Shown piece by piece: positions 43,785 through 49,700 of a DNA stretch of 64,000 nucleotides. Position 1 is the first letter of the stretch. Each line of letters opens with the position of its first letter. Position numbers: made by a program. The stretch lies in the IMG/VR virus record IMGVR_UViG_651053023_000001, positions 32,001 to 96,000 of that record; one strand, given 5' to 3'. Source of the stretch: a virus. Its lineage: Duplodnaviria; Heunggongvirae; Uroviricota; Caudoviricetes.

Positions 43785-46700
43785 TTATCCTTTCCGTTTA
43801 CGGGCTTCGTTAATTTGTGTCTCAAGAATGCTTCGCGCCTGCGCAGTGGCAGCGGCCTTGTCCATTCCCTGACTCATGAAAAACTTTATGAGGTTGTTCG
43901 CCTGCGTTTGCAGGGCTTTTTTGAGAGCGTCGGCTTCAGCGCGAGCCTGGGCTTCCCTCACCCGCGATGCTTTTAGTTCGGCATTCTTCCTGTTTGCCGT
44001 GGTGCGAGCTTTTTTTAACAACCGGCGAACGTTGTCCGTGGCGCTATCTTTTGCGCGTAGTTTTTTGCCTAATGCATCCTGAGATTTCAGATACAGCTCA
44101 TACTCACGCGCAGCTTTAGCCTGATCCGTCGTTGTTGTCCGGTTGCGCGCGAGCGATTTAGCCAGTTCGCCTTTGAAATAGGTTGTTGTCTTCCGCTTGT
44201 CATCGCCGAAGGCTACCTGTTCAGCTGCTTTTTCCAGGGCAATAATGATGGCCTTGTGCCATGTGGGAGACTGAAAACGCGTCATAGCGTGCAACACATG
44301 TTTGCAGGCCACACCAGTCAGATCAGGGTTGCGGATCTTGGGGCATGCATACTCTTTTGGCGGCGCGACAGCATAGTTACCAGCCGTGGCCATATAACGA
44401 TACCAGTATTGATGGCGTCCACAATCACAGTCGAAAGATACCCGGCCCTTGCAGAGATCGGCAGCGATTCGGGCTTTTTTCGCACCGTCTTCAGCAATTT
44501 CCTCAACGGCTTTATCCCATTCCTCAAATCGAATTCTGACACGGTGATGCTGGTGGACCGACTCATCCGAGGCATTAACAGATATCAATGCAAGGTTGTG
44601 TTTTAGCCCGAGGAATGTCGCGGCTTTGATCCCTGTGCCATCAGAAACTTTGTTGTTAGCGCGTTTTATATCAATGCTGGTGGACTGCGCCACCAGCTGA
44701 GCATAGGTAATGCCGGGTACCGTGCTCTTGAATTTTGTTTTATGAGCCTGCCTTGAGGTGTTGAAGCTGCGTATATCTTCTGGCGTAAAGTAGGTGCCAT
44801 CTTTCTTTTTCCCAAGGCTGAGGAATGCCTCAAGTTCGCGGTTACGCATCCCCATAATCCTTGGGGTGAGTGTACGTCGCGCGTTTCGCCGATTCTGACG
44901 CTGCTGTTTACGGATAAGATCGAAGACCTTGTTAAAGTCTTTTGCACTTAATCCATCAGTCTGATAGCGACCAAGGTTGTCGCGAGCATATTCAGTTGGC
45001 ATTCATTTCCCTTACGCAATGGATAATGTCCCTATTACCTGGCCGTCGTATTGGAAATGGCGAATCATTTCGCGGATCCAGGTGGCAGGTGGGAGTTTTA
45101 ATTTTTTGCCAACAGTCATACCCTGAGACTCATCCTCAAGCCCGGCGGCGAGCGTCACAACCCAGCGTAGCTCTGCTATGCCCCACATACGGTAAGCCAG
45201 CAAATCCGGGCGATATTGCTCATCGGGAAGAACGTAATAAATCGTCAGATTCTTGTCGTTCGATTCACACATAAGCATCACCTCTTTGCGTAGCTCTGCC
45301 CTTAGTATTGGATCGGCTATGTTGCGGTCGTCATACCGCGACAGAGGATATTGCCGGGTGCTTTGGGTTGTAGTGATTGATGTAGCCATAGTCAGCCTGA
45401 CAGAAATAGATGATGGTGATTCTACCGCTAGTCATTTGTTGAATATTTAACTCAATAAAAGAAAATTATTAGTGCAATTTTGATTGTGAAATGTATCATT
45501 CTGCCCTTAAGTAGGTTCTTCATGAGGAAACAAAATTGGCAGAGCGTGTTGATGATGCAGAGCTGAGCATGAATCAGTTAGAAGCTCTCAAAGACATGGC
45601 CATCGATAACATCAGAAAGCAGGCACAGGTCGTGAGTCAGGTATTTACAGGGAAGTGTCGTTACTGCAATGAACCGATTGAATCAGGCATTTATTGTGAC
45701 GCTGAATGTGCGCAATGGCACAGGGAAGAGCAGGCCGCAAAACAGCGTAAATATGGCATGCGACCGGCAGGATTTGACTGATTATGTTGCGCTTTACTGA
45801 GGAAGAGTTTCAGGCTTTTAGTGAGCGTCGAAATAAGGGGCGGTCCAGGCCAAAAACCAAAAAGGATCCATTCTTATCGCTTGCGCCGGTAAAAGAAGTT
45901 TCTCCACATGCGAAGGCACTTGCAGCACTGGCAAAGAACCCAGACCTGCGCGACGGAAATTGCGAGCACTTCGAGCAGGTTTTCATTTTTGATTACTTCG
46001 AACGCAAGCACCCTGACATCTATGAGCTGTTGCATGCAACGCCTAACGGAGGGAAACGTTCAAAAGCAACCGCCGGGAAAATGAAGGCTGAAGGGCAGAA
46101 AAAAGGTTATCCGGACATGAGTCTCGATAAAGCATGCGGTATTTATCACGGCATGCGAATTGAGCTTAAAGAACCAAATGGTAAAGCCCCGACGAAAGAG
46201 CAGATCGCCTGGATGCGCAGGCTTAGAGAGGAAGGTTACTACGTCGTTCTTGCGTATGGTGCAGAACAAGCGATAACCGCCATCCTGGAATACATGAGCC
46301 TTAAAAAGGGTGAGGCTATTGAGCATGTATTGAACGGTGACAAGTGGTTGTACGCTACGTGAAATAATAAATTAATTAGTGCATATGTGTATCTTTGATA
46401 CAGCGCACATTAACATCGGGAGAATAATCGTGTCATCCAAGGCTAATTATGAATCGCTGGCATCGATCATGCCGCGTAATGAACAGGAAGCAGATGCTGA
46501 AGTGGACCCGGTAATCGCTGAAATGAATGCTCGCCTGGAGGCTGAATTTGCAGCTGAGAATGAACATACCACCCAGGGCGACTAGGACTGTTTTTTGTGT
46601 CGGTAGCGGTCCGTCACTCACTCGTGAGGACTGTGCTGCTATAGAAAAAACTGGCTGTTCAATCATTGCGGTTAACAATTCCTGGCTGATGTTCGATGAC

Positions 46701-49700
46701 ATTTATGCCTTATACGCCGGTGATTTGTCATGGTGGAAGCAATACGGTTCCACCATACCGGGAGGGAGGTTCCGCAAAGTGACAGCCAACCTGGCGGCGG
46801 CGAAATCATTTTCGTTGGAGTACAGGCGATATTGTGGACCGGCGGAAGGGGTAAATAGCGGCGCGCAGGCTATCAGTCTGGCTGCTGAATCAGGGGCTGA
46901 AGTAGTGGTATTAGTCGGCTATGACTGTTCTCTGCAAAACGGCCTTCATTGGCATGGTGCGCACCCTCAAGCCCTACGGAATCCAACGCAGGTGTCTATT
47001 TCAAAATGGCAACAGCAGTTCCTGGATACCCGCAAAAAACACGCAGATTTACATATTTTGAATGCAAGTAGGAGCAGTGCAATTCAATGTTTCCCAAGAA
47101 TAAATTTAGAGGCAGTGATCGCGTTATTATCGTCGGCAGTGGCCCAAGCGCCGCAAACTTTGTTGCGCCGCGCGGAGTGCCGATTATAGCGGTCAATGGG
47201 GCCATCGACTGGCTGAACCGCGCTTCTTATTTTTTCACACTTGATCCATCGCCAGACAATATGCGGCGCGTTGGTCGTGGCCGCCGTCGCCGTGGTGTTT
47301 GTTATTGCATGGCACTACCCGATGTTAAAGAACGTGAAGTCAGAGACGGCATTCTGTGCTTCCGTCGTGTGGCTGAACGCGGCACAGAGCCAAAAAATAC
47401 GAATTCTCCCGAGTGGTGGGCGTGGCGCTGGTCCGCACATTTCGGCCTTTGCGAAGATGAGAATGAAATTGCCAGCGGCAATAGTGCATATGGTGCTCTG
47501 AACCTGGCTTTCCATATCGGATTCAAACATGTAGCCCTGGTGGGCGTTGACGCTACGCAAGAACTACGCGTTCACTCCGGCGGCACGCCAAAAAATCTAA
47601 GTCACCTGCCTTTGTTATTCCAGTCTGCGCGTGAACAGATTGACGTTGTTTCATGCGGGAAAATGGGAGGTATTCCGCAGATGACTCTTAAAGAATGGCT
47701 GAAGAATACATGATGGCACCCACAATTTATCACCGTATCGACGGTACCAAATACAGGAATGTCTGGGTTGTTGGTGATCTGCATGGTTGCTACACCAGAC
47801 TGATGTCCGAACTCCATCGTGTGGATTTTGACCCGGCGCAGGATTTACTGATATCGGTCGGCGACCTTATCGATCGCGGTACTGAAAATGTCGAATGTCT
47901 GGAACTATTGCAGATGCCCTGGTTCAGGGCAGTAGTGGGGAACCATGAGCTGTTGATGCTCGATGCGTTAAGTCCTGATGGCAACGTGAATAACTGGCTA
48001 ATGAATGGCGGTCAATGGTTCTTCATGCTGGACGCTGATCAGGAAATATTAGCCAGGGCGCTGGTGGAGTTGGTAAGACGACTGCCCTATATCATTGAGT
48101 TGAACACCGGGCAAGAAACTATCGTTATAGCCCATGCCGACTATCCGGATAATGAATATCAATTCGGTAAGGAGGTGCCGCTTTTCAACGTTGTCTGGGC
48201 GCGCGAGCGTATCAGTGATTCGATGGATGATATTGGTGGCGAAATTTCGGGCGCAGATCGTTTTATCTTTGGTCACACTCCGGTGAAAAGCCCGAAGACA
48301 TTCTGGAATCAGCAGTATATCGACACTGGTGCCGTATTTTGCGGAAACCTGACATTGATGAAAGTGAAAGGTGATGGTGCAGCATGAAGATTGCTTTAGT
48401 TTTTCGCTCTGGTGGTGACTATAACGCTTCCGATGTGCAGTGGCTGGTTAATCAACTGCCAAAAGGCTATGAAATTATTTGCCTGACAGACCTGAAGCGT
48501 TTACATGTACCTGGCGTCAAAGTTGTCCCATTGATCAACCAGTGGCAAAAGTGCCGTGGCTGGTGGGCGAAAATCGAGTTGTTCCGACCGGATATAACCG
48601 ATGATCTGTTCTATCTGGATTTGGACACGGTTATTGCCGGTGATATACGCCCAATCCTAGAGCATCCACCAACCAGCTTCACCATGCTTAGGGATTTTTA
48701 CCATCCACAATATCGTGGCAGCGGTGCCCTGTGGATACCAAATAGTGTTAAAGCGCATATCTGGAGTTCATTCTGGCAAGATCCGGAAGGTTGGATTTCT
48801 CGTTGTGTCACTACTGAGTGCTGGGGGGACCAGGGGTTCTTACGAAAGGTTATGGGCGATGATACACCAGCATTTCAGGATCTGTATCCAGGATGGTTTG
48901 TAAGTTACAAGGCCGATGTTGTGGAACCTGGTTCAAAATATGCGAGCGCGCGTTACTCCAGGGGGAATGGGGCATTACCAAAAGACTGCCGAATAATCTT
49001 TTTCCACGGCAAACCGCGACCTCGCGAAGTGTCAGAGGATTGGCCTCCCCTTATCAGCTCATTTTTTGAGCGAGAATCAGAATAATATTGCTCTAATAAT
49101 TCCATATTTTTAAAACGTGATGTACACTCATCACGTTTTTTATTAGAGCAATCTACAAGGTGCACTATGTGGCCATTCCGACGGAAATATCACTACTGGC
49201 TGATCGCCTTTGTTACGCCGACCGGCGGTATCAGGCATGTCATCACCAGGTATCGCAACAAGAGACTCACCTTAGCCAGAATTTTACAGGCTGCCATAGG
49301 TGAGGGACTGGATACAAATTGCGTAGTCCTTCCTCCTTCATACTTAGGAAAAATGACCGAAGCACAAGCTAATACGGAACTTTGAAATGAGCACTTCAGC
49401 ACAAAACCAATCAATCGAAAATGTATGTATCCCTGATGTCCTGAATGCCGGTATCCCGGCCATTATCCAGAACATCCGGGCCGCGCAACGCCGCGTTAGT
49501 TGTGATGACCTCACAGCACGTTTTTTTGATAATGCGGTTCAGTCAGCGGAGATGCTTCACGCACAGCTTATTGATGTTTATAACGCAGAAGCTGATAGCC
49601 ATAACTCCCTGGTAGATGCAGCTGAAAATATGCAGTTGGATCTCGGTCTGAAGGGTAAAGAAATTGAAGAGCTTCAGTTGGAAATTGAACATTTGAAACG

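Follow-up and report, generated by a model that had tools for sequence, protein, structure and literature searches.

A candidate glycosyltransferase cassette, pmgO-pmgP-pmgQ, shared by P1-like and many other phages, with the phosphatase gene ppp as a probable insertion

Virion glycosylation is known in mycobacteriophages and chloroviruses. For the mycobacteriophages Che8, Corndog and Myrna, Freeman et al. in 2023 reportedly described enzymes thought to act on capsid and tail proteins, and in the chlorovirus PBCV-1 the protein A064R is a cytoplasmic enzyme, composed of two glycosyltransferase (GT) parts and a methyltransferase, that acts on the capsid protein. In the searchable literature, virion glycosylation was found to be undocumented for phages infecting Gram-negative bacteria and for the enzyme families treated here. 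We analyzed a 64,000-nt stretch of a caudovirus genome (positions 32,001 to 96,000 of IMG/VR record IMGVR_UViG_651053023_000001; hereafter the window), which carries a four-gene locus with 98.4% DNA identity to pmgO, pmgP, ppp and pmgQ of phage P1, the counterparts of which in P7 are hdmB, hdmC, ppp and hdmD. Although P1 is a standard tool of E. coli genetics, the four genes still carry the placeholder label 'putative morphogenetic function', and no functional study of pmgO, pmgP or pmgQ was found in the searchable literature. Both the list of open reading frames (ORFs) and the identity with P1 place all four genes on the + strand, where a preliminary description had located them: pmgO at 46527..47189 (220 amino acids, aa), pmgP at 47087..47713 (208 aa), ppp at 47695..48387 (230 aa) and pmgQ at 48384..49085 (233 aa), with overlaps of 103 nt (pmgO/pmgP), 19 nt (pmgP/ppp) and 4 nt (ppp/pmgQ). 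As argued below, pmgO, pmgP and pmgQ probably form a glycan-building glycosyltransferase cassette, in which pmgP and pmgQ would be core members and pmgO an accessory one, and into which ppp would have been inserted as an unrelated gene.

PmgO and PmgP were compared with the Maf flagellin glycosyltransferases (PF01973/DUF115, 5MU5) and with Cst-I and CstII of Campylobacter (CAZy family GT42). The two proteins share a VGSGPS motif (residues 25-30 of PmgO, GSGPS family 1, and 16-21 of PmgP, GSGPS family 2) followed by IIAVNN (46-51) in PmgO and IIAVNG (33-38) in PmgP. Their pairwise BLASTP match is weak (16/40 identities, E 0.003), yet the profile-profile comparison of the two families by hhalign, with the natural fusion P0044 left out, is strong (probability 97.9%, E 5e-13, 162 columns), so the paralogy previously suggested from the motifs is real but ancient. 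Against PF01973 (MptE-like/DUF115, which includes Maf), PmgO and PmgP scored 22.6 and 20.9 bits, both under the gathering threshold of 34.6, which some family members pass (P0251, 44.1 bits); several homologues also carry precomputed PF01973 matches. The P1 proteins thus look like outlying relatives of PF01973.

Structure models were made for PmgP and PmgQ. The best fold match of the PmgP model was the glycosyltransferase Maf, and GT42 and GT29 sialyltransferases matched as well, which indicates a predicted Maf/MptE/sialyltransferase fold shared with the PF01973/Maf group; PmgO, as a distant paralogue, is expected to have a fold of the same Maf/sialyltransferase type. The PmgP profile gave no meaningful match to PDB sequences. 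The GxGPS motif and an SG...G-x-D core are invariant or nearly so in both families and align with the GNGPSL and TSG...GID regions of CstII, and each family also has invariant histidines, H141 and H143 in PmgO and H173 in PmgP (the invariant residues of PmgO being G28, P29, S30, N50, D66, S111, G131, D133, H141 and H143). PmgO matches phrog_4603 (4e-73) and, weakly, CstII. The preliminary description had left the GSGPS family unassigned, which no longer holds, and no homology to a structural virion family was found for it. The two differ from the described enzymes: PmgO and PmgP are single domains of ~200 aa, whereas Maf has 632 aa with flanking domains and 18% identity, and the sequence E-values with the Cst enzymes are just 0.07-0.6. 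The RefSeq/PHROGs name of PmgO, 'alpha-2,3-sialyltransferase', is a transferred label. The term 'norphogenetic protein', now attached to hundreds of RefSeq/NCBI homologues, goes back to a typing error in the note of the first P1 GenBank record ('putative norphogenetic function').

PmgQ was compared with family GT8 (glycogenin, Gat1, GlyE of S. pneumoniae, LgtC and WaaO/WaaJ). As a single sequence it had no Pfam match at E<=1, and so no Glyco_transf_8 match. Its family profile matched, among PDB entries, 6mw5 (Skp1 alpha-galactosyltransferase) at E 1.5e-6, followed by GlyE and glycogenin. The AlphaFold2 model reached a predicted local distance difference test (pLDDT) score of 93.1, and the top 50 Foldseek matches were dominated by GT8 structures (E 3e-8 to 1e-6; best 6mw5, 3.3e-8), with Gat1, glycogenin, GlyE, LgtC, WbbM, XXYLT1 and LARGE1 included. 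The invariant columns D79, L80 and D81 (DxD) and H208, G209, P211 and P213 (H208-G-x-P-R-P, within the GT8 pattern H-x-x-P-(R/K)-P) show the DxD plus C-terminal His arrangement of metal-dependent GT-A transferases. PmgQ differs from GT8 enzymes in being shorter (233 aa), its TM-scores are ~0.55-0.61, and hhalign against K-12 WaaO gave a probability of only 11%. Together, the predicted GT-A fold, the DxD metal site and the C-terminal His motif, nearest to GT8 structures, identify the 233-aa protein, earlier listed as an unknown, as a putative distant GT8-like glycosyltransferase by profile and fold. It also matches phrog_1962, glycosyltransferase (2.5e-127), the name it carries in RefSeq/PHROGs. 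Some PmgQ homologues are named 'phosphohydrolase', presumably through a mix-up with the adjoining ppp.

The three genes were found contiguous and in the same order across many phage types: a Citrobacter lambdoid prophage (phiNP), Pseudomonas and Ochrobactrum HK97-like prophages, a 62-kb phage contig, P2-like contigs, the 111-kb coliphage EP_H11 and the jumbo phage XacN1. An exhaustive profile search for PmgP relatives returned 521 representative clusters at E<=1e-3, with 96 at E<=1e-30, distributed over HK97-like, P2-like, lambdoid, P1-like, ~111-kb lytic and jumbo phages and some bacterial chromosomes; every carrier found was a diderm bacterium or a phage of one. When bacterial genomes were scanned, including one of Bacteroidota and one of Gemmatimonadota, PmgP relatives almost always had PmgQ, and usually PmgO, as neighbours. 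The minimal pair is PmgP plus PmgQ (loci L029, L031, L022 and L024). Fusions link the same proteins: PmgO with PmgP in P0044, PmgP with PmgQ in both orders (P-Q in P0214 and P0280, Q-P in P0301), Q-P-methyltransferase in P0269, and the PmgQ domain with a TylF-type sugar O-methyltransferase in XacN1. In BFVD, 'MptE-like' proteins of 685-700 aa from uncultured Caudovirales match the PmgQ fold. In two places the genes stand apart: a solitary PmgQ homologue lies between lpdA-like and acnB-like genes on the Pantoea floridensis chromosome (L008/L009, 8001-8633), and an isolated PmgP plus PmgQ pair lies among ordinary metabolic genes of a 531-kb metagenomic contig (L031, 10001-11298), so the genes persist outside phages and adhesin islands too.

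The gene between P and Q varies. In P1, P7, SJ46, RCS47 and several IMG/VR contigs it is ppp; in EP_H11 it is a GT-B glycosyltransferase gene, in L032 there are GT2-like and Nucleotid_trans-like genes, and in L020, L131 and L135 a gene for an S-adenosylmethionine (SAM) methyltransferase. A fixed core surrounded by variable glycosyltransferases and methyltransferases has the look of a glycan-assembly pathway. This set of partners also counts against another reading of the fold, namely that PmgO and PmgP are pyrophosphokinases of the MptE/thiamine-pyrophosphokinase type. Their substrate would be a small molecule or nucleotide, their role might lie in metabolic takeover or anti-defence, and PmgQ would use the activated product. 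We regard that reading as very improbable: the best fold match of PmgP is a glycosyltransferase and sialyltransferases match too, PmgP is always paired or fused with the GT8-like enzyme and often accompanied by GT2, GT-B, GT-A or sugar-type O-methyltransferases, no other nucleotide-metabolism partner recurs, and the PADLOC defence models gave no meaningful match for the cassette proteins (best E 0.024 and 0.03). Of the substrates that the preliminary description had put forward, a sugar is the best reading.

The phosphatase encoded in the variable slot belongs to a well-described group. Ppp shares all three PPP-family motifs with lambda NinI and E. coli PrpA and PrpB, as had been noted (GDLHG at residues 27-31, GDLIDRG at 56-62, GNHE at 82-85), and it matches Pfam Metallophos PF00149 at 57.7 bits (cut-off 21.5) and phrog_246 at 1.5e-111; the P1 record gives it 64% identity to the lambda phosphatase. 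Its scores fall below the NCBIfam equivalog cut-offs (NF008516, 274.3 vs 326 bits; NF007425, 240.8 vs 332 bits), so that it is a homologue, not an equivalog, of PrpA/PrpB. The lambda gene lies in the nin region, whereas ppp here lies inside a glycosyltransferase cassette. In phage D6, ppp stands alone in a nin-like region without pmgO, pmgP and pmgQ; in P1-like JK004 and the IMG/VR contigs L123, L130, L132, L133 and L141, pmgO-pmgP-pmgQ has nothing between P and Q; and among the non-P1 cassette phages examined, none had a phosphatase in the cassette. The single enzyme module earlier proposed for all four genes is not supported, since ppp assorts separately from pmgO, pmgP and pmgQ: across P1-like genomes O, P and Q stay together and ppp is not a constant partner. 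It is best read as an insertion into the variable slot in one P1-like sublineage.

The tight packing and overlap of the four P1 genes within one unit bracketed by C1 operators, and the retention of this arrangement in P1, P7 and the other genomes named above, would suit a single four-gene pathway in which Ppp, for instance, dephosphorylates a sugar-phosphate intermediate or a phospho-protein acceptor before transfer. The independent assortment just described, the unrelated genes that occupy the same slot in other phages, and the close homology of Ppp to the protein phosphatases NinI and PrpA/PrpB make such a pathway a very unlikely one.

By CRISPR interference (CRISPRi), pmgO, pmgP, ppp and pmgQ, like all genes downstream of pmgN in the unit, are non-essential (PMC10695390); being dispensable, they would be accessory, non-structural enzymes. 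PmgO, PmgP and PmgQ are hydrophilic (grand average of hydropathy -0.06 to -0.34), and the models of PmgP and PmgQ have a compact, globular shape. In the mechanism that we propose, the three proteins would cooperate in the cytoplasm, perhaps within one complex, and assemble a short glycan from nucleotide sugars of the host, and other phages would extend the cassette with further glycosyltransferases and O-methyltransferases. Glycosyltransferase activity is inferred for all three, with CMP-ulosonic acid such as CMP-Kdo as the presumed donor for PmgO and PmgP and UDP-hexose for PmgQ. E. coli K-12 and similar P1 hosts are not known to make pseudaminic or legionaminic acid, so the donor would have to differ from that of Maf, and K-12 is not known to supply CMP-Neu5Ac. 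No gene for sugar-nucleotide synthesis was seen to travel with the cassette, and the donors must therefore be host-universal; if PmgO and PmgP, like their relatives, take a CMP-ulosonic acid, CMP-Kdo is the only one known to be made by all cassette hosts, and this choice is consistent with the diderm-only distribution.

A further described enzyme is WaaZ (TIGR04437/NF007333/PF27901), the Kdo III transferase of the inner core of lipopolysaccharide (LPS), which uses the single CMP-sugar known to be made by all cassette hosts. In a rival reading, the target of the cassette in lytic growth is host LPS or some other glycan of the envelope. PmgO and PmgP would then be WaaZ-like enzymes that attach Kdo to the inner core, and PmgQ a counterpart of the GT8 core transferases WaaO/WaaJ. 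P1 uses the LPS core as its receptor, which would thereby be altered or masked, so that superinfection would be restricted or fewer progeny would be lost on cell debris. The likeness to WaaZ consists of the same GxGP(S/T)...IIAVNG start and faint profile matches: a precomputed PF27901 match on P0044, TIGR04437 at E 2.9e-4 for P0044 and 0.1 for PmgP, and K-12 WaaZ against the PmgP profile in hhalign at E 2.3e-4 with 44% probability (the K-12 WaaZ comparisons gave 44% and 30%). GT8 does include LPS core enzymes, the fold matches of PmgQ include LgtC and WbbM, the diderm-only carriers and the reliance on host-universal donors such as CMP-Kdo fit as well, and PmgO and PmgP are basic (isoelectric points 9.3 and 9.5), as are several Waa enzymes. 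However, the family cut-off of 200 bits is far from reached (PmgP 11.9, the fusion P0044 20.3, PmgO no match), the likeness is mostly confined to the GSGPS region, and the isoelectric point does not discriminate (PmgQ 6.2; Waa enzymes 6.3-9.9), nor does hydropathy compared with the K-12 Waa enzymes. The genomic context, too, is that of phage head genes and not of waa operons.

In or beside head and packaging gene clusters the cassette was found in at least 9 of ~14 distinct phage lineages, with varying points of insertion. In HK97-like and P2-like phages its neighbours on one or both sides are terminase, portal, capsid and connector genes; it may follow the capsid or the connector gene or, in P2-like contigs, the portal gene. 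In P1 it adjoins pmgR and pmgS, pmgR being a head-completion gene. As in the described virion-glycosylation systems, glycosyltransferase genes thus lie in or next to head/tail genes. In D3-like Pseudomonas prophage contigs (L229-L272; L232, 7262-10641), a PmgO-like gene is the sole cassette gene and directly follows the capsid gene, the product of which ends in GSLTAS; further on among the head-tail genes are a 296-aa phrog_6804 protein, the N-terminus of which looks heptosyltransferase-like by eye, and a phrog_6564 methyltransferase. In XacN1, directly after the cassette, ORF372 (L034, 8954-12220; 1088 aa) has a sub-threshold PKD (Ig-like) match (E 1.2e-4), which echoes the Ig-like-domain neighbours on bacterial chromosomes.

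The C-termini of the capsid proteins vary with the cassette, for which 'without' refers to the ~6 kb downstream of the capsid gene. In one capsid family, all capsids with a downstream cassette gene (42/42) end in G-S-L-T-(A/S)-S, and all those without one (30/30) end in G(D/P/E/A)L...A/P; the L007 capsid, which has a cassette and ends in GSLSES, is by sequence more similar to the capsids without a cassette. In two unrelated capsid families the replicate was mixed, with GNLSGAS and SGATGS extensions in the presence of the cassette but also short GNLTL and SGSF ends. Over dereplicated tails, and without correction for phylogeny, the last six residues contain a mean of 2.37 Ser/Thr where the cassette is present and 0.77 where it is not (p 8e-8), and a terminal Ser/Thr was found in 14/19 and 11/62 tails, respectively (p 1e-5). 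The major head protein gp23 ends ...SGDTIDAGDSE in P1 and ...TGDTISSGKSE in JK004, and ...TGKVNEKK in the cassette-less D6. On Pseudescherichia and Serratia chromosomes, genes of Big_1/invasin-type Ig-like surface proteins stand among or next to the three genes.

The fold matches of PmgP and PmgQ do not separate protein from lipid-linked acceptors. The head-gene placement, the capsid tails, the gp23 ends and the Ig-like surface protein neighbours favour a protein acceptor, probably on the virion. The likeliest acceptor would be one of the phage's own proteins: probably the major capsid protein, at its Ser/Thr-rich C-terminal tail, or some other head protein. The outcome would be a sugar-decorated virion, the decoration being dispensable for plaque formation in the laboratory. 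We consider this full model, in which the acceptor belongs to the virion or is some other protein of the phage, tentative and somewhat short of probable. More doubtful, though plausible, is the wider proposal that these cassettes are the first virion O-glycosylation system of Gram-negative-infecting phages, turning host CMP-Kdo and UDP-hexose into a short, sometimes methylated glycan on Ser/Thr-rich head-protein tails, with the enzymes reused on Big_1 adhesins in bacteria. The logic of the mycobacteriophage type, with soluble phage glycosyltransferases among structural genes and dispensable for growth, fits the model; there the hosts are Actinobacteria and the enzyme families reportedly differ. 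A064R of PBCV-1, from a eukaryotic virus, combines GT-A and sugar O-methyltransferase parts like P0269 and the TylF-PmgQ fusion of XacN1, and is an analogy only.

Two islands outside phages, L028 1-16000 in Pseudescherichia and L030 2600-11200 in Serratia plymuthica, have inverse-autotransporter/Big_1/Invasin_D3 genes as neighbours. One protein from each was translated, a Big_1 protein from Serratia and a 690-aa repeat protein from Pseudescherichia, and both were without an obvious signal peptide. In Serratia, the PmgQ-PmgP pair lies between a holin gene and a phage-lysozyme gene, perhaps a sign of release that depends on holin and endolysin.

The context of the cassette bears on envelope modification as well. 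The lysogenic-conversion modifiers of LPS and O-antigen (gtrABC, oac, wzy) are expressed from the prophage and have integral-membrane components; the cassette appears to depart from both features, because C1 operators flank it, a late promoter lies upstream and its three proteins are hydrophilic, with compact models for PmgP and PmgQ. With C1-repressed, lytic-only expression there would be no lysogenic conversion, and late synthesis could hardly replace the LPS of the outer membrane. The cassette is placed in head-gene clusters, whereas conversion genes typically lie at att or tail-fibre sites; strictly lytic and jumbo phages carry it as well, and the correlation with capsid tails would be left unexplained. 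Modification of LPS or another envelope glycan is therefore judged unlikely.

Glycosylation of phage DNA, as a hypermodification evading restriction, can be set beside protein glycosylation, since phage glycosyltransferases that hypermodify DNA exist (bioRxiv 10.1101/2023.12.21.572611) and DNA methylase genes lie upstream of the cassette in the Citrobacter prophage. In the known systems, however, 5mYOX or ThyS homologues are required to form 5-hydroxymethylcytosine or 5-hydroxymethyluracil (5hmC/5hmU), and the transferases are JGT-like GT-A or T4-BGT-like GT-B enzymes (bioRxiv 10.1101/2023.12.21.572611). No such partner gene was noticed next to the cassette, and its enzymes do not match those transferase families; antirestriction was also unchanged in P1 knockouts (PMC9024508). 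This makes a DNA acceptor extremely improbable, and protein glycosylation remains our preferred reading.

The enzyme class itself is not new, as RefSeq/PHROGs names were already given for PmgO and PmgQ. What goes beyond the databases is the definition of O-P-Q as a conserved cassette linked by fusions, to which ppp does not belong, its modular accessory enzymes, and a context pointing to virion protein glycosylation. The question of the acceptor is directly testable, since the P1 knockouts exist and are viable (PMC9024508). If virion proteins are the acceptor, the glycan coats would matter for immune recognition in phage therapy, virion stability, adsorption and virion proteomics, and if virion O-glycosylation holds true, the classic phage P1 has always had an unnoticed glycosylated capsid; if the acceptor is LPS, the cassette would represent a new lytic-phase route of receptor remodelling.

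The control elements were placed largely from the P1 annotation. The rightward unit had been described as starting at 46527 and ending at an operator/terminator element; the end stands, and the start lies further upstream. LPpmgL, a putative Lpa-dependent late promoter taken from the P1 GenBank annotation via a coordinate offset (45429..45447, +), is the probable late start of a pmgL-pmgQ unit. It is followed, outside the cassette, by pmgL (45536..45781, +), encoding a DksA-like zinc-finger protein (phrog_54, E 1.7e-13; P1 annotation), and pmgM (45784..46362, +), encoding a VRR-NUC-type nuclease-like protein with a sub-threshold Pfam VRR_NUC match (21.2 bits, cut-off 23.8) and a match to phrog_5702, Holliday junction resolvase (5.9e-27). 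Neither pmgL nor pmgM, both 'putative morphogenetic' in the P1 annotation, resembles a structural protein. The C1 repressor operator Oppp (formerly Op83; 46369..46385, -) marks the upstream boundary of the C1-controlled unit in the P1 annotation and agrees at 13 of 17 positions with the C1 operator consensus. Next is pmgN (46430..46585, +; P1 annotation and ORF list), a 51-aa ORF that overlaps the start of pmgO and on which the literature conflicts, being essential by CRISPRi (efficiency of plating 1.4e-2) and non-essential in a deletion survey (PMC10695390).

Downstream, the C1 operator OpmgRa (49087..49103, +; ATTGCTCTAATAATTCC) starts two bases past the pmgQ stop codon, and the unit ends at a terminator-like hairpin identified by RNA folding (49112..49139, +), with an 11-bp stem, a 6-nt loop and then a U-run (dG -13.4 kcal/mol, z -5.65; 0/200 shuffles as stable); it was absent from the list returned by a terminator consensus scan. 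The C1 operator OpmgRb (49136..49152, -), the reverse complement of which is ATTGCTCTAATAAAAAA, overlaps the end of the hairpin. OpmgRa and OpmgRb are both from the P1 annotation. The C1 operators and the position downstream of a late promoter agree with the suggested action in lytic growth.

Within the pmgO/pmgP overlap, pmgP lies in the -1 frame of pmgO, and A_AAT_TTA at 47102-47108 stands in the X_XXY_YYZ register of the pmgO frame. A slip there would give a PmgO-PmgP product like the natural fusion P0044. A -1 frameshift was rejected as a candidate, since such heptamers are conserved neither in position nor in type among 22 loci, and a shuffled overlap has a ~10% chance of containing one or more. 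Beyond the locus, two overlapping ORFs at 50722-52019 (136 and 296 aa) look, on reading the sequence, like an IS3-family orfA/orfB transposase pair. As the pair starts exactly at the position of pap (acid phosphatase) in P1, pap appears to be interrupted in the window.

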